Source of the DNA: Leucoraja erinacea
Lineage: Eukaryota
Assembly (NCBI RefSeq): GCF_028641065.1
Contig: NC_073390.1
Coordinates: forward strand, 43,214,001-43,278,000
Direction of reading: 5' to 3'
DNA length: 64,000 nucleotides
Each line of letters starts with the position of its first letter. Position 1 is the stretch's first letter. Below the pieces are notes generated by a model. That model did no database searches and was not told the DNA's origin. It worked only from the letters and a program-made list of their open reading frames with translations. The position numbers and the translations under genes were made by a program. Positions 14,857-61,272 of the stretch are shown piece by piece.

Positions 14857-15033
14857 ACAAATGAAAAAAATTAGTTCATTTTTTTTTTGGAAGGCTGAGG
14901 AATATTCTTTGGTCTGTACTTACTAAACATGCAGGTGAGCTTCCGAAACTCATCCCCCACAAAAAATATTTCTATAGTATTTACAAAAGCTTAGAATATT
15001 CAGTTCTGTGAAGTATTTATACATCCGTGCAGT

Positions 15034-15268
15034 GGCGGCACAGTGGCGCAGTTGGTAGAGTCACTGCCTCACAGTGCCAGAGAACTGGGTTTGATCCTGA
15101 CCTCGGATGCTATCTATGTGGAGTTTGCACATTCTTTGTGTGCCTACATGGGTTTCCTCCGGATGTTTTGATTTATCCCACATCCCAAAGATGTGGAGGT
15201 TTGTAGGTTAATTGCCCTCAGTATATGGGGAATATAGTTGAGAAAATGGGATAGCATAGAATGTGTGT
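15034..15268 (+). mobile_element. HE1-like V-SINE
   Basis: ggcggcacagtggcgcagttggtagag (A box) ... gggtttgatcc (B box) plus V core. Confidence 0.8.
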
Positions 15269-15544
15269 TGGCATATGAGAGTCAGCAATTATACCTTGGA
15301 TTTTTGGGAAAATACTGACCCCCCAAATCAAAACACTGGGCACATCCATGTGTTCCTGGCTGTCTATTAATCATTTCCCCTCAAAAAGCCAAAAATATAT
15401 ATTTTAAATAACAAAAAAATGTGAATTATGATTATGTTGCAGGCCAGAGTCTCTGATATTATATGTCCTGTTGTGATCTGTCTCTGACCAATTCCCAGAG
15501 AAACCTTGAATCTTTTTAAACATTGGGCTGACAAATATCTTTAC

Positions 15545-15800
15545 CTTTAGAAAGGAGATGAGGAGGAATTTCTTCAGTCAGAGGGTTGTCAATCTGTGGA
15601 ATTCTTTGCCACTGAACGTTGTGGAGGCCAAGTCAATGGATATGTTTAAAGGGGAGATTAATAGATTCTTGATTAGTATGGGTTTCAGGGTTTGCAGGGA
15701 GAAGGCAGGAGTATGGGGTTGAGAGAGAACGATAGATCTGCCATGATTAAATGGCGGTATAGAATTGATGGGCCGAAAGGCCTAATTCTGGTCCTACAAC
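15545..15800 (+). mobile_element. CR1 3' fragment
   Basis: gagatgaggaggaatttcttcagtcagagggttg...gatgggccgaaaggcctaattctg. Confidence 0.75.
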
Positions 15801-16702
15801 TCACAAAAAACAATTTCTTTGGTTCCCCAGTATTTATACCTTCACCTCCATACCCTCCATCTCAGACAAAATCACAAAGTTTAACTTGCCCGTTTCAATG
15901 ATAAATTAATTTTCTGACGCTAATTCCTCTACACAGCATCTTATCTATCTGATGAAGGGTCTTGGCCTAAAATGTTAACACTTACAGAGTATTTCCAGCA
16001 CCGTCTGCTTTTGCATCAGATTTTTGATTTGCACCTTCTATCACAGAGACCATCCATCTTCTGTGTTTATTGCCAAACTCGAGTTGTTGTCACCTCCAGG
16101 GTCAATTACCTCTGTCCCATTGACTTCGAGCTCTGTAAGCCTTAGTTACTACAGTCCCAACCTACCATTACTCCCGTCCTTATTAAATTAAATTAGTCTG
16201 CACGTTCTTTGTTGCATTTAATCCATGACTACACTCCTTAGTTTCTCCGTGATTCGCTCCAGACGTTGTGATCTTCTCACTGAATTTCCTACACTTCTGA
16301 CTTCAGTTTCTTTGCAATCTATGCAAACCTCTCCTTTGACTTCACAGTGACAGCTTCACCTGGCCAGATCTCAAGTTCTTGAGTTCCATCTCAAACTGCT
16401 GTCTCTCACCCTTCCCCTTTTCTATGAACATCAAGTTTAAAATCCATGCCTCGGTTAGATTTTAGACAGTTTTCTTAATTTTCTTCTGTTCTGTAATCAA
16501 TATGTTAATTACAATGTTGAAGTATTTAAATATGTTAAGCATCTTATATAAATATAAAACTAAATGGCACAAAATGGCTCAAATATATGCTGAGTAATGA
16601 TAACTAAGAAAAATGTGATTTGATGTTATATTGTTTTGTTAGTGTTTTACAAGTATAACGCAAGTAGACATCTAATTTTAATAAAGAAACCCATTATATA
16701 AA

Positions 16703-16820
16703 GTATGATTTACACCAAAGATAGAGTCTGAAGAAGGGTCTCGACCTGAAACGTCACCTATTCCTTTTCTCCAGAGATGCTGCCCGACTCCTTGAGTTAT
16801 TCCAGCTTTTTGTGTTTATC
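16703..16820 (+). mobile_element. Penelope-derived terminal repeat with hammerhead core (16728-16755)
   Basis: ctgaagaagggtctcgacctgaaacgtc. 13-bp TSD cccattatataaa at 16690-16702 and 16821-16833. A second, minus-strand degenerate copy follows at ~16840-16966. Confidence 0.8.
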
Positions 16821-17076
16821 CCCATTATATAAATACTTGGAGACACAACAAACTACAGAGGCTGGAATCTTGAGCAAAACAGAAAGTGCTGGTGGACCTT
16901 AGCGGGTCAGGCAGTATCTGCGGAGGGAATGGACAGAAGATGTTTTGGGTTGGGACCTTTCTTCAAATTCTACTACAGCTTGCCTTGAAGGATTGTGGTT
17001 AACGCCCAATAAAACAACATACGTTTATACATACTACATTAATCAAAAGATGAAGCTTCAAATTGTTTTTAGAAAT

Positions 17077-17082
17077 TTTATT
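17077..17082 (-). terminator. Candidate distal polyadenylation signal AATAAA
   Basis: tttatt on +, followed on the minus strand by GT/T-rich sequence (tgtagtatgta...tatgttgtttt). It sits at the edge of the repeat-poor block. Confidence 0.45.
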
Positions 17083-17548
17083 TATACAATAATAAAACTA
17101 TATACAGATATAAACACTGTAAATTGACAGTATAATACGGTACAGAGTTTTAAACTGCACTGTTTATCAGGCTCGGCAGCATTAGCAAAGACATCAACGT
17201 GTAGGACAACTGAATACACAATAACATCTTTTCATAAAAATTTTTAGATTTATAATGTGCTCTTATAGTTGAGAGTTGTTCAACGTGGGACTGGGAAATT
17301 GTGCATTTTGTATCTGCTGTTTGAATTCAATCAACATGCACTTCAGGTTAGAAGTACTATGCAAAGAACTTCTTTCTGCTTCCATGGAAAGGAAAATCAA
17401 GCAGGCCAGAGTACAGAACTAATTGCCAACCTGGAAGTTAGAATAGAATATTTGCTATATCGTTCCAATATTGCATTTTTATCCCACATCAGAAGACCGT
17501 TCCCTTGCTTCTGAAAATTAATATTTTATATTTTACCCCGTGTCAGTT

Positions 17549-17934
17549 NNNNNNNNNNNNNNNNNNNNNNNNNNNNNNNNNNNNNNNNNNNNNNNNNNNN
17601 NNNNNNNNNNNNNNNNNNNNNNNNNNNNNNNNNNNNNNNNNNNNNNNNNNNNNNNNNNNNNNNNNNNNNNNNNNNNNNNNNNNNNNNNNNNNNNNNNNNN
17701 NNNNNNNNNNNNNNNNNNNNNNNNNNNNNNNNNNNNNNNNNNNNNNNNNNNNNNNNNNNNNNNNNNNNNNNNNNNNNNNNNNNNNNNNNNNNNNNNNNNN
17801 NNNNNNNNNNNNNNNNNNNNNNNNNNNNNNNNNNNNNNNNNNNNNNNNNNNNNNNNNNNNNNNNNNNNNNNNNNNNNNNNNNNNNNNNNNNNNNNNNNNN
17901 NNNNNNNNNNNNNNNNNNNNNNNNNNNNNNNNNN
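17549..17934. other. Assembly gap (386 N)
   Basis: Run of N next to a GA-rich simple repeat. Confidence 1.
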
Positions 17935-17949
17935 TATACATACCGAACC

Positions 17950-18058
17950 AGAGAGAGACTGGCAGAGAGAGGAGAAAGAGAGGGAGAGGGAGACAGACAG
18001 ACAGGCAGAGAAAGGGAAGATGGAGAGAGAGATAGAGAGAGAAAGAGAGCGAGAGAGT
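17950..18058. repeat. Imperfect (GA)n/(GACA)n microsatellite
   Basis: Directly visible purine-rich repeat. Confidence 0.9.
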
Positions 18059-20231
18059 CTCCTGCAAAATCACAATTCAATAATGGCAGCCGCCTGTTAT
18101 GTTTTGAGGTCGTAATGGTTTACTATTTATACTGCAGTGGTGCATCAAACAGATCAGGAAAAGTAGAGTTTTGATTCATGGTCCCTATTGACAGTGGAAG
18201 TGCTGTAAACTTAACCAGGGTTCATGGTCTTGCTAACCAGTGGCTACTGTTGGCAAATGGTGTTAGTGAGTATGTGTTTGGGTGCATGTGTGTGTAAGTA
18301 GGGATGTATGTGAATGGAATGAGAAAGGTATTCGGGTTAGTTATGATTGAGATCCTTAATCAAACAGGCTGCTGCTACCTGGCCTTGCAGATGACTTCGC
18401 ACCATCTGGTATAGAATGCCAGGAGGTTGTGAGGATATACATTATACAATCTTTTATTACTAATTGCCATTTTTGGGAGAAACAGAGAATATTGGGAGGA
18501 TTTATTGCATACTAAATGGAAAATAAATATACTCTAAAGTAAAAAAAATCCTTCCATAAAATTCTGGAAATAAATTTAGCTTGATAAAATATCTAACAGG
18601 GACTCCAGTCACAGAGTACAAAAAACTAGATAACAATGAGGAACAGCCTGGACAAGTTAAAAAATATTATATTTATTAATGATATTAGGAAATGTTTGAG
18701 TCATGGTTGTTCAGACATAAATTTCACAGTCATTTGAGGGTATTATGCCTTTGCAAATAAAATTAAATGATTGTTTCTGCAAGTGACAAATGGCAGGGAA
18801 ATATTTGATGACAAAAATCATTTGACTTGTGAAAACAAAAACTTAGAAACATATACAGGCTGTGCAATATACCATGAACTTTGTTTGGGAAACGATCCTG
18901 AACAAATGCTTTTTGTGCACTTCAACAATCAAATGGTTTTTGGCAAATGTTCACTCAAACTATCTAATGTCGCTTACGTTAAGTAGCAATACTCAAATAC
19001 AACTTATCACTGGAAAATGAAAAGGGCAAATTACCTCAAACAGCACAGGAGAAACAATTTACAAGCAACAAACTGTCAGGGCACTTTTGACAGCCCTTAT
19101 TATTTTAATTTCCCCAGTTGTGTCACAATATTCATGTGAAATACACGCAATAAATCTCATGTTCTGCCTTCTTACAACAATTAAAGCCGCAATATGTCAT
19201 AAATTCAGTTTAAGTTCATGATATCTTGTAATTTAATTCAAAAAAATCCAAATTAGCAAAATTGTGAAGTTATAAAATTGGAGTAAAACGTTTTTAAGTA
19301 TTCATTCCCATTCTAATCCTTCTTACTTGTCAGATTTCATAAATAGCATGTCCATACTGAATGTATAAGGGATCACAACCGATGCTATACTGCATGCCGT
19401 CAACTATGAACAATTTTAAAACCTTCTACATACATTTTACAGATAATGTCACCAGGAGCTCTCAGAGCAGAATACTCATTTGCAAATATTTACAAAATAT
19501 GTAGATTTCTCATGTTGAGGTTCCTCGAGAATAAACCGAACCGGACTTTTCTTTGTGAACAAAATATTAAAAAAAATGTTTTTACAGGTGGTTACAGTTC
19601 TAATGTCTATTAGCGAATAGTAACTGCGCAGCATCTTTTCGATATTTAACACAACAGAAGCAATGTGCATGTGAATTACAGCAATTCCAAGGTAAATCAT
19701 TTACAGAAAGCACAGCACAATAAAGAACATTTCTGTTCCTTAATTTTTAATGTATTTCAAATCAAATTAGCATGTTGTTACCAAATGCAAACTTATGCAA
19801 AAAAGGTCCAGACTTTCCAAAAAAAAAAATCACTTAATGAAATTAAGTAAACAACTGCTTTACAAACCACAATCATTTATATGAGAATTAATTAATTGCT
19901 AGGAGTCTAGGGAAACCATAAAACTCAAAAGTTTTATTCTAAGTTTTAGAATAAAGCATCAAGTAATCAATGAGCATTATCCATTCGCATCATAAATTGC
20001 CTCGCATGTCGCAAAACTACTTGGAGAAATCTCTTCCTATTACTCATTTTTTTCCAGATTATTAATCAAAAGCTTTCTTGAGTAAAAAAATTCCAAATCA
20101 GTTCTGATACTCGTGCTTATTAGGAAATAGTTTAATAAACAGCAAATATCTATGCAGCACTAAGTTATTTAATTTAATTGATTTCATTTAGGTTTGCATG
20201 ATTTACAATGAACCATATGAAATCTGTTACA

Positions 20232-20329
20232 AGGTACACAAAATTGCTGGAGAAACTCAGCGGGTGCAGCAGCATCTATGGAGCGAAGAAAATAGGCGAC
20301 GTTTCGGGCCGAAACCCTCCTTCAGACTC
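20232..20329 (-). mobile_element. Penelope-derived terminal repeat inserted in sense in the putative NLGN1 3' UTR
   Basis: Minus strand reads ctgaaggagggtttcggcccgaaacgtcgcctat. TSD ctgttaca at 20224-20231 and 20330-20337. Same subfamily as 39133-39235. Confidence 0.85.
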
Positions 20330-21885
20330 CTGTTACACACTGCTTGTATACGTGGAGCAGATGATCAGGAGTAATTCAATGGCTGTCATATAAAGATGCC
20401 CGCAACTAATATTTATTTTAAAAGGGACAAACGATGAATTTTTAACATGCTTTCAGATAAACAAAAAGTGTTTTGGGGCATGCATAACAAAATCAAATGT
20501 TGTAAGTCATTTATACAACAGAAAATAAAAATAATTTGGCGAAAGTTCGTCTGGCAATTTTGATGTCCTCCTAAAAGTGGCAGTGGTGTTATATCCAATC
20601 AATGGTAACATGACATTAAGCAGGTTGTAAACTTTTCAATTCACATAACTAATTGAAAGAAGGATGGTTAATCACATTCTGCTATTTTGTTATACATTTT
20701 ATGCCAATGTTATTGCAAAATAATCTGAATTCAATATCCTTCCCAATGCATTCGCATTCTGAGAATTTCTGATCAACTTGTTATTTAATAAAACTAACTT
20801 TAACTTTACTTAAATCTTTATTTATTTTGGCATAGGGTCTCATTTCTCAACAGCACATTGTTAGAATGAACATACTGCTGTCAACCACACTGTCAATGAT
20901 ACTTGCGAACGAGAGCAAACTAGATTCCTTTTACTGCTGTTTGATAAGCTGGCACTAAATAATTAGAAAAGGACTGGAATTTGATGAAGAAAAATTACAA
21001 CACCGAAAATTCCCTTTTCTAGAATTTATGACTGTGTTTACGTCAACAATTATTCTAGCACATTTTTGTACAAAACTACTTTCTTTGATCTGTTTATTGA
21101 AACTACCAAGAACTTATTGATTGGATTTGCATCAAACTCTTCCTCAGGTTGTCATCTGATGAAGGAAGTGTTTTTAATACTAATTTTTATGGGGAAGCAA
21201 AGTATGTTCTTATCACAGCTTATTGAGCAGCACAGTCACAAAGCAGATAAATAATCATGCGCATCGTGCTAAAAATGTCCTGTCGCATGTTTGCCGAAAT
21301 TGTGTTGAAAGCACTTTGCAAAAAGCTGTTCATGGCAGTAATTGGTCTATTCTTCTGTCTCATTGAAAGAAAGCAGTCATATCCTTGTGCATGAATACTC
21401 TACACAAAACTTAACAGCATGTACTGAATGTACATTTCATTAGCAAATTTGAACAATGGCATTGTTCCAAAAAGAAAATAGACAGAATTTGTTTCATTCT
21501 AGGAACTTGCTCCTTGTGCATTTGTGCAGTCTTCAAAGTTATTGTTTTAAATCCTTCTTCATTAGTGCAACACATGCCTAACGGGACAACATTGCTTTTG
21601 GCACCAAAGCAGAACACGTAGTTCAAAGTCTTCAGAGAAAAATACTTCTCCTTTCCCAAGAGAACTGCAAAATATTGCCATCTACTAGAATTTTTTTAAT
21701 TGATCAGACGGGTCCAAACTTACTTGCCTTTTAGGAATTTATCCAACTGTATTAAAGACAATTACCACAGATTGTTTCCTCTTAATATTTAGTAATGGTC
21801 ATGCACCATGAACACCAATTCAAATATGATCTTCACTCGCAATCTCACACTTTTTGAGTTGTTGTTATCTTCAGATCTTGCCTGG

Positions 21886-22711
21886 CTATACCCTAGTGGT
21901 TGAATGTGAGTGGGGATGAGGATGAGGAAGGGTGTTGTTTTGTCCTCCTGTAAATGTGTTGAACGTGTGGAGCGGCTGCATACCAGGTATAGTATTTGGA
22001 ATCATAGTAATGGTCTTCGGTGTCATTAAAGGTATATCGTCTGGGGATCGCCTCATTGCTAATGTGTAATCCGGAGGGCAGGCTGTCCGCAGAACAACCT
22101 CGTGTGGATGGATGGAGTCACATTCGTGATCAAGATCAGTGTGCTTCATCTGCAGGGACATAATTTCTTCTTCTTGTGCATGAGTTAGGTCATTGGCGGT
22201 GTTGCGTTGAGGGCTGCATCTTCTGTGAACATCGTGCCTCCTTTTATCCTTCTTATAATACAACGCTGCAAAGGCAAGGATATTTAAGAACAAAAGGGAA
22301 GCTCCAACTGCAATGGTAACACTTAACTCCGTTGAGTAGTCCCTTTGATCAACCAAGAAAGGGCCCGCAGAATGCTTCTGGTCGTCTTGCTTGACAGTGG
22401 GAAAGACCGAGGTCACAGGACGTTTCGTGGTAACAGACCACTTCTTTGATGGTCTGTTTGTAATTTCAGACGGGACTTTAGTAGTTGTAGAAGTATACTG
22501 GGAAATGTCATTCAAACTATGTAAGTGAGGAACCAGCTCTAACCATAAGTTGACTTTATTGGCTCTGTAATGCTCTTTAACGCGCGGTTTCAGTCCAATG
22601 TGCAGGTAGAGTTGATCTTTCTGAGTATATCTTGACCAGGCAACCTCTTCAAAACGGTTTGGTTTGGTGTGGATAAATTTGGTATCCTGAGGGACCGGTT
22701 GATTTGGGTCA
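21886..22711 (-). CDS. NLGN1: Neuroligin-1 last coding exon (end of esterase-like domain, stalk, transmembrane helix, cytoplasmic tail with PDZ-binding motif)
   Basis: Acceptor ctctacag|T at 22712/22711. Reads (G)[25 protein letters not shown]...[25 protein letters not shown]...[14 protein letters not shown]...[11 protein letters not shown] stop at 21888-21886. The tail matches NLGN1, not NLGN2/3/4. Confidence 0.97.
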
Positions 22712-23324
22712 CTGTAGAGGGGAATACATTTGGATTTAACAGATCATGATGGAATCGCACAAAAAAGCAACAAAAGAATCATACATTTTCCAGATATTCT
22801 GTTGTTTTACTAATTAATCTTCCCTGCGTGGACTTGGAAATAAATATAACTGATGCTTTTTTGGAGAAATGATTGTTAATGAAGTGAACAGCAATGCTGA
22901 AAGTAAGTTGGCACTGTGTGGAAATTTATTTACAATCATATTTTCCCAGAAATAATTTTCATTTTTGTTCACACTCATATATAAAATTCCCTCCTTAGTT
23001 GTAAACTGGGATCAGCGAATCGGCAAAAACAAACCAATTCAAGTGTTGCAGTGCTCACATGTAAATATAAGCAATATGGCAAACAAGATCACAGAGCTGC
23101 AAGCACAATGTGCTATACAGTACATGGTGCAATGAACGATATGGTGGTAATAATGGAAATACAGCACAAACAAGGACTGGTAATCTAATAATTCTGGGTG
23201 CAAGGAAAGAAATAGAGGGAATAAAGTAAAGAAATTATGAAGGCAATGAAAGATTTGGCAATTAAAGAGTTAAAGAGAGATTTGAATAGCATTTAAACTA
23301 GGGACAAATGAGAGGCTACTACAT

Positions 23325-23870: not shown

Positions 23871-26490
23871 GAAAACATAGAAACATAGAAATAGAGAAAA
23901 TAGGTGCAGGAGAAAGCCATTCGGCCCTTCGAGCCAGCACCGCCATTCATTGTGATCATGGCTGATCGTCCCCAATCAATAACCCTTGCCTGCCTTCTCC
24001 CAATATCCCTTGATTCCACTAGCCCCTAGAGCTCTATCAAACTCTCTCGTAAATCCATCCAGTGATTTGGCCTCCACTGCCCTCTGTGGCAGGGAATACC
24101 ACAAATTCACAACTCTCTGGGTGAAAAAGTTTTTTCTTACCTCAGTCTTAAATGGCCTCCCCTTTATTCTAAGACTGTGTGTGGCCCCTGGTTCTGGACT
24201 CGCCCAACATTGGGAACATTTTTCCTGCATCTAGAATTGTCCAGTCCTTTTATAATTGTATATGTTTCTATAAGATCCCCCTCATCCTTCTAAACTCCAG
24301 TGAAGACAAGCCTAGTCTTTTCAATCTTTCCTCATATGACAGTCCCGCCATCCCAGTGATCAATCTCGTGAACCTACGCTGCACTGCCTCAATCACAAGG
24401 ATGTACTTCCTCAAATTAGGAGACCAAAACTGTACACAATACTCTAGATGTGGTCTTACCAGAGCCCTATGTGTGTTTATTGTTGTTTTATTGTATTGTA
24501 TTATATGTATGACTGCTGCAATTTCGTTCAGACTAAGTCTGAATGACAATAAAAGGCTATCTATCTATCTATCTATACAACTGAAGAAGAACCTCTTTAC
24601 TCCTATACTGAAATGCTCTTGTTATGAAGGCCAACATTCCATTAGCTTTCTTCACTGCCTGCTGTACCTGCACGCCAACCTTCAGTGACCGGTCTACAAG
24701 GACACCCAGATCTCGTTGCACCTCCCCCTTACCTAATCTAACCCCATTGAGATAATAATCGCCCCCTTGTTTTTGCCGCCAAAGTGGATAACCTCACATT
24801 TATCTATATTATACTGCATCTGCCACGCATCTGCCCACTCACTCAACCTGTCCAGGTCACCCTGCAACCCCCTAACATCCTCTTCACAGTTCACGCTGCC
24901 ACCCAGCTTTGTGTCATCCACCAACTTGCTGGTGTTGCTCCTAATTCCCTCTTCCAAATCATTAATATATATATGGTAAACAGTTGCGGCCCCAGCACCG
25001 AGCCTTGCGGCACTCCACTCGCCACTGCCTGTCATTCTGAAAAGGACCCGTTCACTCCTACTCTTTGCTTCCTGTCTGCCAACCAATTTTCTATCCATGT
25101 CAACACCCTACCCCCAATACCATGTGCTCTAATTTTAGTCTCCAGTCTCCTGTGCGGGACCTTCTCAAAGGCTTTCTGAAAGTCCAGATACACTACAACC
25201 ACTGTCTCCCCTTCATCCATTTTACTTGTCACATCCTCAAAAAATCCCAGAAGATTGGTCAAGCATGATTTCCCTTTCATAAATCCATGTTGACTTGGAC
25301 TAATCATTTTACTGCTATCCAAATGCCCCATTATTACCTCTTTAATAATTGACTCCAACATCTTTCCCACCACTGGTCAGGCTAACTGGTCTGTAATTCC
25401 CTGTTTTCTCTCTCGCTCCTTTCTTGAAAGGTGGGATAACATTAGCTATCCTCCAATCCACAGGAACTGATCCTGAATCTATTGAACATTGGAAAATGAT
25501 CACCAATGTGTCCCTAGAGCCACCTCCCTGAGGACCCTGGGATGCAGATCATCAGGCCCAGGGGATTTATCATCCTTCAGTCCCATTAGCCTACCCTATA
25601 CTATTTCTCACCTAATGAAAATGTATTTCAGTTCCTCTACACCCTTAGATCAGAGGATGTTGTAGTCCTCCAGTACATCTGGGAGATTGTTTGTGTCTTC
25701 CTTAGTGAAGACAGATCCGAAGTACCTGTTCAACTCTTCTGCCATTTCCTTGTTACCCATAATCATTTCACCCGTGTCTGCCTTCAAGGGACCCACATTT
25801 GACTTTGCTACTCTTTTTCCCTTAACATATCTAAAGAAGCTTTTACTGTCCTTCTTTATATTCCTGGCCAGCTTCCCTTCGTACTTCATCTTTTTAGCCC
25901 ATATTGTCAGTTTTGTTTCCTTCTGTTGTCCTATGAAAGTTTCCCGATCCTCTGGGTTCCGGCTACTCTTTGCTGTGTTATTAGAAAACTTTTCTTTTCG
26001 TTTTATTCTATCACTAACTTTTCTTGTCAGCCACGGTTGCCACCTACTCCCCTTAGATTCTTTCTTCCTTTTTGGAATGAAATGATCCTGCGTCTTCCGG
26101 ATTATGCCCAGAAATTCCTGCCATTGCTGTTCCACCGTCATTCCTGCTAGTATCCCTTTCCAGTCTACCTTGGGCAGCTTCTCTCTCATGCCTTCATAGT
26201 CCCCTTTGTTCAACTGCATCACTGACACTTCCGATTTAACCTTCTCCTTCTCAAATTGCAGATTAAAACTAATCATATTATGACCACTACCTCCAAGCGG
26301 TTCCTTTATCTCGAGTTCTCTTATCAAATTTGGTTCATTGGACAACACTAGTATTGCCTTTTCTCTGGTCGGCTCCATTACAAGCTGCTCTTAGAATCCA
26401 TCTCGGAGGCACTCTACAAACTCTCTTTCTTGAGGTCCTGAACCCACCTGATTTTCCCAGTCTACCTGCATATTGAAATCCCCCCAATAC
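23871..26490 (-). mobile_element. 5'-truncated, frameshifted CR1 LINE
   Basis: Successive ORF2 pieces ([33 protein letters not shown]) with a ctatgttt tail. Interrupted at ~24469-24575. Confidence 0.93.
24469..24575 (+). mobile_element. Short retroelement 3' tail with (CTAT)n, nested in CR1
   Basis: Non-CR1 insert ending gaatgacaataaaagg-(ctat)n. CR1 sequence resumes after it. Confidence 0.6.
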
Positions 26491-27374
26491 CACAGAAAAG
26501 ATCCTTGGAAGATAAAATAAAATAAATTTGAGGAAGTAGCGAACATTTTGCATCTACAGTGTCTCCAGAATACAGAATCTACTGGAACAGTAAATAAGAC
26601 AAGAATGATTTCTAATTGGATATGAATAAAGAGGAAGTAGTTTAAAGATTGTAGTCCTTGAGGGCGAAAAGGCACCTGATGGGATTGCATAAAAATTTGA
26701 TTTTTGTGGGAAGTATGGAATCTCCCGATCCAGGGACCATACTGTATCAACTGTCCTTGGATATGGAGGTGACATCAGAGGATCAAGTGGTATATTTTTG
26801 TTTGAAGAAAGCACAGAAATGTGACCATGCCAACTACGGGCCTATTAAGAGATCATCCGTTTTGTGGAAAACTTTGGGGCAATAATCCAGGACAATATTA
26901 AGTGTCGTTTACAAAGGTACGGGTTATAAATTAAAGTCTGCACAGATGTGTTCATGTAACAAAGAAGGATCAAAAGTTCAAAGGTATTTTATTGTCACAT
27001 GCACCAATTAAGGTACAGTGAAATGTGGTTAACCTGCATCTTCAAATGAAATTTGAAAACTAACGCAATAAGATTTTAACAAAATTATACCCCCAGGGTG
27101 TAAAGGTAATTAAGGATTGCAAAGCAGAGGTGAATGATTTTATTCCTCAGTAGAGGGAAGTATAAACAGTATTTCACTGAGCCGTGTTAGAATAAATGCT
27201 CTCCAGAGATTTTCTCCAGAGATGCTGCTTGACCCGTTGATTTACTTCAGCATTGTGTGTCTATCTTTAGAATAATTGCTATTCTTCATTAGCATCTTGC
27301 ACCTGTACTTCAAGTGCAAATTATACAACATTTAAAAATGTAACAAACGAATAAACTGGGTAATACATGGATAC

Positions 27375-38769: not shown

Positions 38770-39235
38770 GATATCGGTGAGACCAAGCGGAGGTTGGGCG
38801 ATCGTTTCGCCGAACACCTCCGCTCGGTCCGCAATAACCAAGCTGACCTCCCGGTGGCTCAGCACTTCAACTCCCCCTCCCACTCCGCCTCCGACCTCTC
38901 TGTCCTGGGTCTCCTCCATGGCCACAGCGAGCAGCACCGGAAATTGGAGGAACAGCACCTCATATTCCGTTTGGGGAGTCTGCACCCCGGGGGCATGAAC
39001 ATCGAATTCTCCCAATTTTGTTAGTCCTTGCTGTCTCCTCCCCTTCCTCAGCCCCCCTGCTGTCTCCTCCCATCCCCCAGCCTTCTGGCTACTCCTCCTT
39101 TTCCCTTTCTTGTCCCCACCCACCCCCGCCCCCGATCAGTCTGAAGAAGGGTTTCGGCCCGAAACGTTGCCTATTTCCTTCGCTCCATAGATGCTGCTGC
39201 ACCCGCTGAGTTTCTCCAGCTTTTTTTTGTGTAAC
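38770..39235 (+). mobile_element. 5'-truncated Penelope-like retroelement: C-terminal GIY-YIG endonuclease region plus 3' repeat with hammerhead
   Basis: Frame reads IGETKRRLGDRFAEHLRSVRNNQADLPVAQHFNSPSH...RKLEEQHLIFRLGSLHPGGMNIEF. Perfect 13-bp TSD ctatcttaaatta at 38757-38769 and 39236-39248. Confidence 0.9.
39133..39176 (+). ncRNA. Minimal type I hammerhead ribozyme motif in the Penelope 3' repeat
   Basis: CTGAAGA-A-GGG-TTTCGG-CCC-GAAAC-GTT (core 39141-39168). Palindromic ACGT in place of helix III. Flanks can form an interrupted helix I. Confidence 0.7.
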
Positions 39236-45147: not shown

Positions 45148-45294
45148 AAAAGGACACAAAGCGCTGGAGTAACTCAACAGGTCAGGCAGCATCTCTGGAG
45201 GACATATGTTGGGAGACTCTACCTGACCCGTTGAGTTACTCCAGCACTTTGTGTCTGATTTGTAAACTGGCATCTGCAGTTCCTTGTGTGCACA
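45148..45294. mobile_element. Inverted pair of Penelope-derived terminal repeats lacking the ribozyme core
   Basis: gacacaaagcgctggagtaactcaacaggtcagg ... cctgacccgttgagttactccagcactttgtgtc. Confidence 0.75.
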
Positions 45295-53256: not shown

Positions 53257-53802
53257 ATAGAAACATACATAGAAACATAGAAATTAGGTGCAGGAGTAGG
53301 CCATTCGGCCCTTCGAGCCTGCACCGCCATTCAATATGATCATGGCTGATCATCCAACTCAGTATCCCGTACCTGCCTTCTCTCCATACCCCCTGATCCC
53401 CTTAGCCACAAGGGCCACATCTAACTCCCTCTTAAATATAGCCAATGAACTGGCCTCAACTACCCTCTGTGGCAGAGAGTTCCAGAGATTCACCACTCTC
53501 TGTGTGAAAAAAGTTCTTCTCATCTCGGTTTTAAAGGATTTCCCCCTTATCCTTAAGCTGTGACCCCTTGTCCTGGACTTCCCCAACATCGGGAACAATC
53601 TTCCTGCATCTAGCCTGTCCAACCCCTTAAGAATTTTGTAAGTTTCTATAAGATCCCCTCTCAATCTTCTAAATTCTAGAGAGTATAAACCAAGTCTATC
53701 CAGTCTTTCTTCATAAGACAGTCCTGACATCCCAGGAATCAGTCTGGTGAACCGTCTCTGCACTCCCTCTATGGCAATAATGTCCTTCCTCAGATTTGGA
53801 GA

Positions 53803-53861
<59 letters not shown>

Positions 53862-56195
53862 AGAACTGTACGCAATACTCCAGGTGTGGTTTCACCAAGA
53901 CCCTGTACAACTGCAGTAGAACCTCACTGCTCCTATACTCAAATCCTTTTGCAATGAAAGCTAACATACCATTCGCTTTCTTTACTGCCTGCTGCACCTG
54001 CATGCCTACCTTCAATGACTGGTGTACCATGACACCCAGGTCTCGCTGCATCTTCCCCTTTCCCAATCGGCCACCATTTAGATAATAGTCTGCTTTCCCG
54101 TTTTTGCCACCAAAATGGATAACCTCACATTTATCCACATTATAGTCCATCTGCCAAACATTTGCCCACTCACCCAGCCTATCCAAGTCACCTTGCAGTC
54201 TCCTAGCATCCTCCTCACAGCTAACACTGCCCCCCAGCTTAGTGTCATCCGCAAACTTGGAGATATTGCCTTCAATTCCCTCATCCAGATCATTAATATA
54301 TATTGTAAATAGCTGGGGTCCCAGTACTGAGCCTTGGGGTACCCCACTAGTCACTGCCTGCCATTGTCAAAAGGACCCGTTTACTCCTACTCTTTGCTTC
54401 CTGTTTGCCAGCCAGTTCTCTATCCACATCAATACTGAACCCCCAATGCCTTGTGCTTTAAGTTTGTATACTAATCTCTTATGTGGGACCTTGTCGAAAG
54501 CCTTCTGGAAGTCCAGATACACCACATCCACTGGTTCTCCTCTATCCACGCTACCCGTTACATCCTCGAAAAATTCTATAAGATTCGTCAGACATGATTT
54601 ACCTTTCGTAAATCCATGCTGACTTTGTCCAATGATTTCACCACTTTCCAAATGTGCTGCTATCCCATCTTTAATAACTGACTCTAGCAGTTTCCCCACT
54701 ACCGATGTTAGACTAACTGGTCTGTAATTCCCCATTTTCTCTCTCCCTCCCTTCTTAAAAAGTGGGGTTACGTTTGCTACCCGCCAATCTTCAGGAACTA
54801 CTCCAGAATCTAAAGAGTTTTGAAAGATTATTACTAATGCATCCACTATTTCTGGAGCTACTTCCTTAAGTACTCTGGGATGCAGCCTATCTGGCCCTGG
54901 GGATTTATCGGCCTTTAATGCATTCAATTTACCCAACACCACTTCCCGGCTAACCTGGATTTCACTCAATTCCTCCAACTCCTTTGACCCGCGGTCCCCT
55001 GCTATTTCCGGCAAATTATTTATGTCTTCCTTAGTGCAGACGGAACCAAAGTAGTTATTCAATTGGTCCGCCATATCCTTGTTCCCCATGATCAACTCAC
55101 CTGTTTCTGACTGCAAGGGACCTACATTTGTTTTAACTAATCTCTTTCTTTTCACATATCTATAAAACATTTTGCAGTCAGTTTTTATGTTCCCTGCCAG
55201 TTTTCTTTCATAATCTATTTTTCCTTTCCTAATTAAGCCCTTTGTCCTCCTCTGCTGGTCTTTGAATTTCTCCCAGTCCTCCGGTATGCTGCTTTTTCTG
55301 GCTAATTTGTACGCATCATCCTTCGCTTTGATACTATCCCTGATTTCCCTTGTTATCCATGGATGTACTAACTTCCCTGATTTATTCTTTTGCCAAACTG
55401 GGATGAACAATTTTTGTAGTTTACCCATGCAGTCTTTAAATGTCTTCCATTGCATATCCACCGTCAACCCTTTTAGAATTAATTGCCAGTCAATCTTGGC
55501 CAATTCACGTCTCATACTCTCAAAGTTATCTTTCTTTAAGTTCAGAACCATTGTTTCTGAATTAACAATGTCACTCTCCATCCTAATGAAGAACTCAACC
55601 ATATTATGGTCACTCTTGCCCAAGGGGGCACGTACAACAAGATTGCTAACTAACCCTTCCTCATTACTCAATACCCAGTCTAAAATAGCCTGCTCTCTCG
55701 TTGGTTCCTCTACATGTTGATTTAGATAACTATCCCGCATACATTCCAAGAAATCCTCTTCCTCAGCACCCCTGCCAATTTGATTCACCCAATCTATATG
55801 TAGATTGAAGTCACCCATTATAACTGTTTTGCCTTTGTCGCATGCATTTCTAATTTCCTGTTTGATACCATCTCCAACTTCACTACTACTGTTAGGTGGC
55901 CTGTACACAACACCCACCAGCGTTTTCTGCCCCTTAATGTTTTGCAGCTCTACCCATACCGATTCCACATCCTCCAAACTAATGTCCTTCCTTTCCATTG
56001 CATTAATCCCCTCTCTAATCAGTAACGCTACCCCACCTCTGTTTCCTTTCTGTCTATCCCTCCTGAATATTGAATATCCCTGGATGTTCAGCTCCCAGCC
56101 TTGGTCACCCTGGAGCCATGTCTCCGTGATCCCAACTATATCATAGTCATTAATAGCTATCTGCACATTCAACTCATCCACATTATTACGAATGC
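53257..56195 (-). mobile_element. Nearly complete ORF2 of a CR1-clade LINE (APE endonuclease plus reverse transcriptase), young copy
   Basis: ORFs 56217-54367 (GITETW, MGDFN, SDH, YRPVSLTS, LDFQKAFDKV) and 54354-53359 (GVPQGSVLGP, FADD) are in the same frame, separated by one TGA. (TATGTTTC)n-like 3' tail at ~53257-53285. Confidence 0.95.
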
Positions 56196-58478
56196 TGCTA
56201 ACCAAACATATAACCATTTTATAAATTATGGAATTGAAAATTAAAATAAACCATAAAGGAAAACTTTATTGGATGTGTTAAGAATTTCTTTTGAAAGGAA
56301 ACATATATTGAAGTTGATTGTTTTAACACAGGTTTTATAAATAACAAGTGATGATGTAATTTTAGCCGATTTACATATTTCTTACATTTGTTGGCAAGCA
56401 TGGTCCTTTCATGATTGACATGGAGTATTTTGAGAATGTTGATAAAACTTTCCAATCTTTAAAATCTCCAAGTCATATCTGCTTAACTGAGTCAAAATGT
56501 TGGGTTATATGAACTTGCGAAGAAGTGTTAATAATGTCAGATTCATTTGTGCGATACCTCGGTCAGCCGAAACATGATCCTAGTTTCCCGGAAAGAATTC
56601 CCAATATTAGACAATACGTATCGGCTTGGTTGATTAAAGCTGTCATTTTTTTTTCTCCTGGTTCGGTCAATATCTATCTACTCCCATGGCTCCTGTTTTA
56701 GTTTGAACCAGACTCAAGCCATAAACAATGCTTGCATTTCAATATTCAGTTTATCACTGAGCTCAGTCTTTTAAACACCTCTTCTCAGGCACAAGAAAAT
56801 GTTATTTCTAGTTTTTCAGGTGCTTGGGCAGGGTGAGGGCACTTGGTCCAATGCTTTATTTTCTGATCACCACTTTGAAACATTGTCTTTTTCCCCACAG
56901 ATGTAGCTTAGTCAGGTCTTTCCAGGGATTGTTTGCATTTTTCTCATATCTACAGTATTTTGCATTCAGATATCTAAGCTGGCCCAGCATCTTTCTTTTC
57001 TTCAAGTATTTGTCTAGTTTTTCCATAAAACCTGTAAGGGTCTCTGCCTTAACTATTACTTGTAATAAATCATACTGTGCTTCAAAAACTCAATGTGGAA
57101 CAAAAGCTCTCCGAATCTTTGCGCTGCAGAATTAGTTTTTAGATTTAATGACATTGTGGCACAGGAAAGATGATGTTCCAATTCAGTGATTTATAATTTT
57201 AGTAATTAAATATTATAGTTTAATTAAATATATTAAATGTTTTAGTTCTTCCTTCTACAGTCAAAAAACACTCACGAATTTCCTAAGATCCATAATTTTC
57301 CAGAAGAAAATGTATGCCCTGATCTTTTTAAAACCTTTTAGAAACAGTATAATGGATAATCTAAAAAATGCACACAACATAATTTAATACCAAACAAGTG
57401 TTTTGTATCAACTGACCATCGTTTAATTCTCTAGAAATTTGTGCTTCTGTTTCGAAGAGCACAAAAAAAAGTGACCTTGTCATGGATCTAAGGTCACACT
57501 CTCCTGCTCTTGCAGTCCATATGCAATGAATGCTCCTCATCCAAATATCATGCTGTATTTCATTTCCATATTTTGGCTGACTTGTCACTGGGGATCAACA
57601 AGAATCACTGCCAATCTGATGGACAGGTGCTGCAAACCAGCTGCAGGTGACTGCCTCCAGGGGTGATCGAGAAGACCTTGTCAGTTCATGACTCTTCCAC
57701 TGGAATCACATTAGCTTGGTCTGAATCCTATAATCCCATTCTAAGGGCCCGGATCATCAATTTATTTTTATTTGAAGCGTATTATATGTCATGCACCTGA
57801 ATTTAGAATAAGATCACTTGGTCTTCTAAAATGTATCCATAAATGTTTGCTCGATGTAGAAATAGCTGTGTGATTTGCTGCCAATTTAGTTTGTTTCTGA
57901 ATATCCAATGCACATTTAGATCATTGACAAAGACATGTAAAACATCTTCTCTTCAGTGAGGTAAAAAATGAGTGCAAGAAAGTTATATTTGTATTGAGTT
58001 TAAGGGATAAGAATAATTAACAAGTAACCTAATGAAATAATTCTGTACAGCTTTTGTTTCAAGAGACAAAGAATATTATTTGAATAACAAACAGTCCATA
58101 TGATGGTTCCCAATGCACTGCTCAACAATGCAATTTTATGTCGTTAGTTAATGAAGCACATTGTGGAATATGTGCAAATGTAATTCCTTCAGTTGTCACG
58201 TACTGTTTGCTAATTACATCAGGGCCGCTCAAGAGGAAGAAATAAACTGTATATCTCAAATACATTTGTAGGATGGGTGGTTGAGGAAAATGCAGGATAT
58301 AAAATGAAAAGCAAGCAAACAGTTCCAAAATAAATAAAATGAAAGGTGATCTCTGAGTCAAAATTGCTCAGTATTCATTCTCCATGGTAACTGTCGCGAC
58401 AGTTGAAGCTTCCGGCATGAGGTGGTCAAACTCAGATAACCAATTACCAAAGTTTCTACTAAAAGATGCATTCAAGTA

Positions 58479-58638
58479 TAAATGTTTAAGAACGAACTGC
58501 AGATGCTGGAAAAATTGAGGGTAGACAAAATTGCTGGAGAAACTCAGACTGAAGAAGGGTCTCGACTCGAAACGTCACCTATTCCTTCGCTCCATATATG
58601 CTGCCTCACCTGCTGAGTTTCTCCAGCATTTTTGTCTA
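58479..58638. mobile_element. Inverted pair of Penelope-derived repeats with an intact plus-strand hammerhead core (58549-58576)
   Basis: ctgaagaagggtctcgactcgaaacgtc. TSD cattcaagta at 58469-58478 and 58639-58648. Confidence 0.85.
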
Positions 58639-61272
58639 CATTCAAGTAGGAAGTAGGCATTAAAAAAAAACAATTGGATCAGTCCTGACAGTGAAGATGA
58701 TGCCCATCATGGTATTTACAAGATAATGGATATAGCTTGCATTTTAATTTATTTCCTTCTCATTGGGTAAAATGTTTACCAAAATTCATAATTCCCATCC
58801 TAACCAAGAAATTGAATACATTTGTGAGACCCCCCCCCTCAAATTGCCACTAATAACTTTAAAACTCACAGGACTTTAAAATAATAAATAGCATGAAGCA
58901 TTTTTTTCTTTTATCTGAATATTCTTCACAGTAAATCTGCTCATGAAAAGTTTGTATTAAACTTAAATCAGCGAATCACTATAAAAATACCTTTAATAAT
59001 GACAAAAATCGTCAAAACTTGATTAATCCACTTGGTTAAGGCTTGGAAAGTCAAAGACTAAAATGCAAATCTAACATTGTTACTTTATTTCTGATGGTGA
59101 CTTTTGAAATCTGCAGTTAATTAGCAAGAAAATGTAGTCTGCATGATTTTTATATTGAGGTGAATGTATACCAAACAGATGTGGGTGGAATACGTAGCTT
59201 ATTTAATAATATTAATTGCAGCAAACTGAAACTAGATTGGTTTCCATGCCAAACTGAATCCCACACAGAATGCTTACTCTTTTCAAAGAGTATTTTGACA
59301 AATAGTCTACAAGAACAACTAGATGCATAATACTGTGGTCAGCATGGTGTTAAATTAATTGAAGTGAATCAAATCAACTAAATTGTAAGGGATGTTTTAA
59401 CTGCATTCACCAGAATCTTCTCATTTCTCAAAGCACTCCAATGTTGTTCCTGTGAAGCAGGAAGCAAACTTGCCTCAAATTTGTGGCATGCTTCCTTGAA
59501 AATATTAGGTCCTAAAGGCAACTGCTGGCACCATCTTCAAAGAACTAAGGAGAATGAGAGTTCAACTCTGACCATTACAAAGAGATTATGGGCCCCTTTA
59601 CTCGGTTCTCTCGCCCCTTTTCCTGATTACAATGCATTGCTGAATCCTCTCCTGGCAACCATCTTGATATCAAAGACCATTACTTTCATCCTTGGCATAG
59701 GGAAGTTCTTCAGAAACTATTTTTTTCTACAATAATATTGTTTAATCTAAATAAATTAAAAATTAATAATAAGTGTTAGCTGGTGCCAAAAGATGCAAAT
59801 TTTTTTTTTTTTAAATGCAGTTTTTTACTAAATTTGCAGATGATTTCAAGGTAATTTCAAGGATCCTTAACATTTTGCTTTAGCCCACTTGCTCACTTGT
59901 TGCTTGTTGTCAGTTTTACATGTGCAACGGACTGAGAAGGAAGGGAGGACGTGCAGAAGGGAGACAAAACTGCCAGCATCATGCAGACAATTTAAATTGA
60001 TAGTGATAATGAAAATCCACCGTTCTATCTTCTGGGAATTTTTTTTAACTTATCTCACTTTTTGCTGTGCGGAATATGTTACAATTGCTAGAAACAACGC
60101 TGACACTTCAAGATATTTTACATCCGGTTCTACTTAACAATTCTTTATATGCAGAAATACCAGTAATAATAGAGTGTTATGACAGGAATTTTCTAATGGT
60201 TTATTTTTTGGCAATGAAACTTAAAAAAAAATTGTCTATGGAGCTGCAAAGTCAATTAAATAATTAAACAATCATCCTTCTGATTTAATTGGATTTTCTG
60301 GGGTTGCGTTTGCCTCAGAGGACTCATGACTGATTATTCTCCTCATCTGTATACATTTATTTCACATGGACAACTTTAAATAATGTAATCATCCATAAAG
60401 ATTCCAAAGCTTAACTATTGTAGTGCTTCAGGATCAAGATCGTCCAACATACTTGGGACGAGAGTTCTTTAAAACAAAAGAGCTAGTAATTAATACAGCA
60501 GAACTTATTTATTGCCTCTGGCTAAAGGAATTATTCAGTTCCTGCAACAAGGATGAAAAAGATACTTAATAGAAACCATTAGGCGTTTCTGTATAACAAG
60601 TACAGTATATTCTTCCCTTGGCTTCCCATTCTAATACTAATCTGGATCTATTTCTGATTCCCTGGTGCTGGTTGTTGCTTTTAGTTTCTACATAATGCAT
60701 GGTCTTTTGAGATGAGTCTTTCTAATCTTCCTGCATAATAGGATGTAGTGTACATTAATTTTATGAATGGACATTTGTTCCTTTTCAGGATATAGAATCT
60801 CATCCAAATACCTGTCTTATTCTGTAGGATTTTACAAGGAACTGCATTGGACTGAATGTATATCCTGCAGTGTTTTTCCTGCCTGAGTGACCCTGTTTGA
60901 TTAGTCTCATTTCCAACTCTCCCTTCAGCTATTTACCAATGTACTGCAATCATAGTTAAATCAAGCGACTGGACCATATTTAATATTCTTTCACATCTCC
61001 TAGTTTGTATTTCACAATAGTTAAAATAAAGTCACTGCAACTCATATATGAAATAGATCTGACAGCTATTTCGCAATAGTGCATTGATCATAAATTTAAA
61101 TAAAATCATTTTATTTTAATCATCGCCCCTCCAACAATCATACTTATGGAACAATTTTCAGATCAACCTCAATTATTTTATATTTGTTCCACAATAATGG
61201 TCCATCCATAAGCTAGGGCACAATTCACCTCTATTCGATTGCAGACATTCAACGTATTCTATTGTACTGTGC

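Follow-up and report, generated by a model that had tools for sequence, protein, structure and literature searches.

The 98-bp insert in the likely 3' UTR of the neuroligin gene NLGN1 is very probably an inert passenger, namely a recent and short pLTR copy of a Penelope-like element (PLE) which carries a likely sporadic G at position 9 of its hammerhead-like core and, by prediction, leaves the NLGN1 mRNA uncut. All positions refer to the window, by which we mean the whole stretch of 64,000 nucleotides that was analysed. The insert occupies 20329-20232 on the minus (mRNA) strand of NLGN1, where it reads CUGAAGGAGGGUUUCGGCCCGAAACGUC, and it starts 1,556 nt downstream of the stop codon (21888-21886). 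It is bracketed by an 8-bp duplication (20337-20330 and 20231-20224, minus strand):

20232..20329, minus strand: 98-bp insert from a Penelope-like element, a short terminal piece of the pLTR that stops at the 3' end usual for the family, without the 35-nt tail (sequence; 94.7% identity over 94 bp to both pLTRs of the long family locus L155; 3' end and optional tail common across loci)
20330..20337, minus strand: target-site duplication, upstream copy (sequence; 106-base skip in empty sites, with 8 ambiguous letters)
20224..20231, minus strand: target-site duplication, downstream copy (sequence; empty-site comparison)

The first-pass annotation had described a young 98-bp copy with an 8-bp duplication on the mRNA strand, and both the sequence and the empty sites in relatives bear this out. 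Organisms A, D and E are empty at the site, their sequences skipping from 20223 to 20330. The skip omits exactly 106 bases, i.e. 98 + 8, so that insert and duplication are both real. Organism C is filled, as its contigs run 24-27 bases from the flank into the insert with no skip (on both sides in X8 and on one side in X9). The flanks differ from the window by about 0.5% in C, 1.5% in D, 2.6% in E and 2.8% in A; the insert is thus not conserved at the orthologous site, being present in the closest relative C only, and judged from these sequences the insertion probably postdates the split from organism D. A cluster of differences from the window at 19949-19955, common to organisms C and D and in part to E, is either a derived change or an error of the assembly at this place. 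The initial G of the insert matches neither the family master nor the duplication. A cap-derived origin of this G was rejected, since the first 100 listed of 2,584 copies with a non-C before AGT contained, as read by eye, G in 31, A in 40 and T in 29 cases (p = 0.31 against an assumed base composition).

NLGN1 is identified as the host gene by its exon at 29000-28197, for which neuroligin-1 chains give 570 bits and NLGN2/3/4 at most 537, and the last exon encodes a neuroligin C-terminus. The relevant parts of the gene are:

21886..22711, minus strand: protein-coding portion of the final NLGN1 exon; last letter of the acceptor AG at 22712, stop at 21888-21886 (sequence; RNA-like contigs stop at 22712, intron depth zero)
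17060..21885, minus strand: likely long 3' UTR (RNA-like contigs down to at least 18200; distal end placed by the AATAAA at 17082)

Contigs from runs X1 and X3 of organism A covered nearly all of 18200-22712 and ended at the acceptor, with zero depth at 22753-22900, and an X1 contig carried 144 extra letters that do not fit the intron. None of the runs is registered as RNA; X1, X3 and X5 were taken as RNA by inference, the automatic guess for X3 being probably DNA. Since the X1 and X3 contigs are spliced at the acceptor and cross the site, a long UTR across the insert site is likely, and the earlier placement of the insert in the NLGN1 3' UTR is supported at that strength by these RNA-like contigs of a relative, which run from the last exon past the site. 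Run X5 of organism B, which probably belongs to the same species or to one very close to it (2 differences from the window in about 1,700 unique bases), gave seven short contigs flanking the insert on both sides, none of which bridges it or falls on the coding part; a search for RNA contigs bridging the filled site found none. The poly(A) run X14 of organism D (6% of the run) had almost zero reads on unique UTR or exon. AATAAA signals lie upstream of the insert at 21098, 20826 and 20417, and some transcripts may end there, before the insert.

It had also been proposed that the insert is the sole transposon in the putative UTR. Scanning 15000-22760 against 156/157 fetched loci and the rest of the window revealed no other repeats within 16970-20208 or above 20337, which agrees with this proposal for all but the 386 bases at 17549-17934 that are N and were excluded. 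In the 4.8-kb UTR, 0.025 sense copies are expected by chance. Two older family copies lie head to tail at 16706-16969, just beyond the likely distal poly(A) signal; the one at 16724-16815 runs antisense to the insert in the UTR, to which it is 79% alike, and pairing between the two is possible only in read-through RNA.

The hammerhead-like core of the insert was compared with a standard core in another copy within the window:

20318..20325, minus strand: first core box, C3-U4-G5-A6-A7-G8-G9 plus an extra A before helix II; G9 at 20319 in place of the family A (sequence, comparison with 39141, genome counts)
20306..20317, minus strand: helix II, 4 bp on a UUCG loop; the fourth pair is U-G here and U-A in the older subfamily (sequence; older-subfamily copies)
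20298..20305, minus strand: second core box GAAA, loopless palindromic ACGU (no monomeric helix III) and C17 (sequence)
38770..39235, plus strand: comparison copy, a 5'-truncated Penelope-like element (GIY-YIG ORF end, pyrimidine tract, standard core at 39141) with a 13-bp duplication, antisense in an NLGN1 intron (99.1% to the L155 pLTRs over 467 bp)

Position A9 is required for hammerhead catalysis. The putative cut position would lie between 20298 and 20297 under the usual numbering convention. Numbering of the cut site in PLE hammerheads was also drawn from PMC4209133, which describes an extra base between 9 and 10.1 as a trait of minimal PLE hammerheads. The two core differences from the 39141 copy are as first described: 20319 is G where that copy has A, and 20298 is C where it has U, giving GUC rather than GUU. 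GUC is a subfamily trait, found in 6/30 standard-core loci and 10/30 G9 loci. The insertion had been thought to truncate the 5' side of helix I as well. Upstream tract has indeed been lost; however, the contiguous helix I is 2 bp in the insert and already 2 bp in both the 39141 copy and full-length L155, so the truncation removes little of it. If the core is read in the alternative register (CUGA-AG-GA), an extra base is inserted after A6; an insertion there gave low activity in a natural hammerhead variant tested in PMC3088659, and the CUGA turn adjoining position 9 is treated in PMC9901934. Our literature search on the effect of A9G returned nothing relevant.

The Rfam scan of the window gave no hammerhead family match at E<=1 among 11 weak matches, and the motif is recognised through its core alone. 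The insert has the GAAA box, helix II with G10.1-C11.1, the extra base 9a and the palindromic 15.2-16.2 of minimal PLE hammerheads. Its CUGANGA box, intact in the family master, is broken by the G at 9, and helix I has 2 contiguous bp in the insert and in full-length copies instead of 4-5 bp. There is neither a stable helix III nor a tandem partner: loop 3 is absent and the window's mRNA strand holds no second intact core, all six intact cores of the window being opposite to the NLGN1 mRNA strand. On its sequence the core is best called a degenerate remnant of a minimal PLE hammerhead. Other family members in the window form fold-back (inverted) pairs at 45153-45255 and 58520-58639, the former yielding spurious microRNA-family matches in Rfam.

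Folding predictions suggest that the core is sequestered in the NLGN1 transcript:

20268..20344, minus strand: predicted long imperfect hairpin between the upstream host flank with the first core box and the insert interior; masks the hammerhead fold (ViennaRNA)

The 100-nt segment 20355-20256 was predicted at -31.0 kcal/mol, and freeing the core and forming helix II would cost 10.1 kcal/mol with G9 and 10.7 with A9. The corresponding median was 7.0 for 30 standard copies (2/30 as high) and 10.0 for 30 G9 copies; these values describe secondary structure without the tertiary core, and standard copies score poorly as well. The hairpin might instead act non-catalytically, by altering poly(A) site choice, stability or localisation. 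The 77-nt predicted structure, with its segment at -31 kcal/mol, is found some 70 nt downstream from the AATAAA signal at 20417, in a UTR otherwise without detected repeats. However, such a role follows from prediction, and since the flank is older than the insert (it aligns in the relatives) the pairing between them is likely due to chance, so that we regard this effect as very unlikely.

Next to be considered is whether the G at position 9 has itself been selected. The standard 26-nt core occurs exactly 22,732 times in the genome (2.19 Gb), on both strands alike (11,318 plus, 11,414 minus; p = 0.53), and the 3'-anchored family pattern has 39,293 matches. G9 occurs in 93 otherwise exact cores (0.41%), which is less than the neighbouring changes A6G (145) and A7G (294). 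Because it is rarer than these, G9 looks sporadic, and the sequence counts point to a mutation that is likely recurrent and at background frequency. Counting against this, more diverged copies had G9 in 3/100, as read by eye in the first 100 listed of the 39,293 matches. A distinct G9 subfamily was rejected: besides the 93 copies genome-wide, G9 was seen in 1/100 of the insert's own subfamily (first 100 listed of 612 matches), and exact matches to the 42-nt G form number only two, in the NLGN1 insert and on one other contig.

Copy orientation was scored over 631 kb in three neuroligin genes (341 kb of NLGN1, 100 of about 142 kb of the second and 190 kb of the third). Family copies numbered 108 sense and 130 antisense (p = 0.17) and intact cores 8 and 16 (p = 0.15), the intact share being 7% against 12% (p = 0.28). 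This antisense lean is not significant, although weak selection against intact sense copies may be at work. The NLGN1 introns hold 4 sense and 7 antisense intact cores, and intact sense cores are thus tolerated in NLGN1 pre-mRNA, introns being different from UTRs. These data bear on the idea that the copy was weakly active at insertion and that G9 was then selected for silencing the cleavage of NLGN1 mRNA. The sole change that the insert does not share with its subfamily does strike a conserved core position, and the 16 to 8 lean of intact cores, not significant, is in the direction this idea would need. On the other hand, G9 is genome-wide rarer than the neighbouring A-to-G changes, four intact sense cores persist in the NLGN1 introns, and the predicted fold is equally unfavourable with A9; we consider such silencing highly improbable. 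The related claim that the single core change made the motif inactive did not hold up either, as the parent motif is reportedly inactive as a monomer or without protein (see below) and G9 stands at background frequency.

The preferred reading, an inert passenger, is consistent with what the family looks like elsewhere in the genome. Among the seven long candidates fetched, L155 has 540-bp direct repeats, 99.3% identical and both containing the motif, around a 743-codon frame with matches to RVT_1 (E 2.5e-6) and GIY-YIG (E 0.005), both slightly below the Pfam cut-offs. The insert matches both repeats equally well, at the identity given above. L155 and L151 carry a CX2-5CxxC linker between RT and EN, which according to PMC8557442 marks the Neptune and Nematis clades. 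By sequence, the insert is assigned to the pLTR end of an EN+ Penelope-like element with a Neptune/Nematis-type linker, the clade being assigned via the linker and to the two clades jointly. The stretch L155:1290-5972 (G000:C3:73182700-73188700) represents a full pLTR-ORF-pLTR element; in L154, L155 and L157 the 5' part and the RT-EN part are in separate frames. Family copies end at one fixed 3' site or about 35 nt beyond, and head-to-head pairs (adjacent inverted truncated copies) are found among the loci. An optional 30-40 bp tail and adjacent inverted truncated copies typify EN+ PLEs in the description of PMC8557442, and the tail is explained by an internal start of reverse transcription in PMC11167929. 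In the 39141 copy, the last 82 residues of the ORF have 100% matches at many sites of the genome (150 of the 94,466 candidates were scored), and copies with long open frames are present in the genome.

With regard to 5' ends, 30 loci (L158-L187) started just upstream of the core in 14 cases (about two of which may be diverged long copies), further upstream in 8, inside the core in 6, below it in 2 and at the cut site in none; by eye, about 44/100 of the first 100 listed of the 39,293 matches began just upstream of the core. The clustered ends (14/30) lie no more than about 9 nt upstream of the CUGA box, at TCAGT. We take TCAGT to resemble an initiator motif, and the cluster may mark the start of the element's RNA. 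A spliced form with a better helix I was unsupported, as 30 loci with the insert's first bases share no upstream exon-like sequence besides inverted element pieces. At 39022-39140 the comparison copy has about 117 nt of almost pure pyrimidines with a CAG end abutting the core, which, by analogy with the intron end of the D. virilis element, resembles a splice acceptor. Absence of this tract from the UTR copy may be the reason why the latter is tolerated in sense orientation. The NLGN1 introns also contain large minus-strand LINE fragments with endonuclease and RT frames (53362-56265 and 24271-26774), presumably CR1-like.

Published work on relatives of the motif suggests that cleavage needs more than the insert provides. 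The monomeric minimal PLE hammerhead of Schistosoma showed undetectable cleavage and its dimers low activity only, as reported in PMC4209133, and the Anolis PLE motif cleaved only with the element's protein, with zero reads ending at its site, according to PMC11167929. Family sequence is abundant in the poly(A) run of organism D, at about 1,000-fold depth per strand (6% of the run); a pile-up of read ends was not listed among 5,547 family reads, which is weak evidence as the library was fragmented. Such abundance would suit a stub that acts as an attenuated and conditional cleavage element, in which the Penelope protein, or ACGU pairing in trans with family transcripts, occasionally removes the distal UTR and the poly(A) tail. 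The insert has the sense orientation, the GUC triplet and helix II in place, the genome has copies with long open frames, and protein assistance of a PLE hammerhead has been observed in vitro (PMC11167929). Against this, the core is damaged in either register (for the A6a register as judged from PMC3088659), helix I has 2 bp, the hairpin competes, an intermolecular helix III would have 4 bp, and co-folding two copies gives pairings other than the hammerhead. The absent read-end pile-up points weakly the same way, and because the insert is lacking from three relatives it has no conserved role. Conditional cleavage is in our judgement extremely unlikely.

The first-pass annotation had left two branches open, an inactivated remnant tolerated in the mRNA and an attenuated cleaving element. 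The former fits our data as far as an inactive and tolerated remnant is concerned; the latter is unsupported, with helix III absent, helix I of 2 bp, a core that is predicted to be masked whether position 9 is G or A, and three relatives empty at the site. As an inert passenger, the insert would have arisen when uncleaved RNA was copied through target-primed reverse transcription that began at the internal start site of the element. It would then be carried in long-UTR NLGN1 transcripts, where its RNA would stay uncut for want of a dimer partner and of downstream element RNA, and owing to the competing hairpin.

Taken by sequence, the insert appears to derive from and to work like the minimal pLTR hammerheads of metazoan PLEs. 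It resembles the minimal type I motifs of Cervera and De la Pena 2014 (PMC4209133) in the conserved boxes, the extra base between 9 and 10.1, G10.1-C11.1 and the loopless palindromic 15.2-16.2, and the skate family shares with the metazoan PLE hammerheads described there the motif in both pLTRs and thousands of single truncated copies per genome. Helix I has 2 contiguous bp here, as in D. virilis, compared to 4-5 in other PLE hammerheads of the same paper, and the skate copy differs from these in its 4-bp helix II and G9. Cartilaginous fish are not named among PLE hammerhead hosts in the part of PMC4209133 available to us, and a literature search for a hammerhead-bearing Penelope in shark or skate found nothing, although paper supplements may list cartilaginous fish. 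PAc, an Anolis element of the Poseidon group (Frangieh et al. 2024, PMC11167929), likewise has its 3' ends fixed at two sites some 35 nt from each other, and copies that come from uncleaved RNA; in the skate family 0/30 loci start at the cut site. Unlike PAc, the skate family has a Neptune/Nematis-type Cys linker, and its motif lies upstream of the apparent start codon, whereas that of PAc overlaps the start codon.

The discontinuous hammerhead of mammalian Clec2 genes (PMC6155905) is likewise found in a 3' UTR on the mRNA strand. However, in Clec2 the motifs belong to type III, have full helices and are common to mammals, whereas the skate stub is lineage-restricted, without helix III and changed in its core. 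Vertebrate non-LTR retrozymes, as described in bioRxiv 10.64898/2026.07.22.740005, are also PLE-derived, hammerhead-bearing repeats, and the few exonic Xenopus PLE-derived copies reported there tend toward 3' UTRs. As tandem units, retrozymes provide a dimer partner, in contrast to the skate insert, which is a single copy with a target-site duplication.

A most improbable generalisation, with large consequences if it were true, is that the Penelope stubs of host 3' UTRs serve as latent cut sites, which are cleaved in the presence of the element's protein or of a partner transcript. The NLGN1 mRNA would lose about 3 kb of distal UTR together with its poly(A) tail, transposon activity would be tied to synaptic mRNA turnover in one skate lineage, and more than 22,000 exact cores would constitute a large source of lineage-specific mRNA cleavage; the NLGN1 locus, with filled and empty alleles in close relatives, would then be a clean test case. 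The most likely reading, in which the insert is one further recent transposon stub in a long UTR, matters little for the gene, and the insert is usable as a presence/absence marker among related skates.
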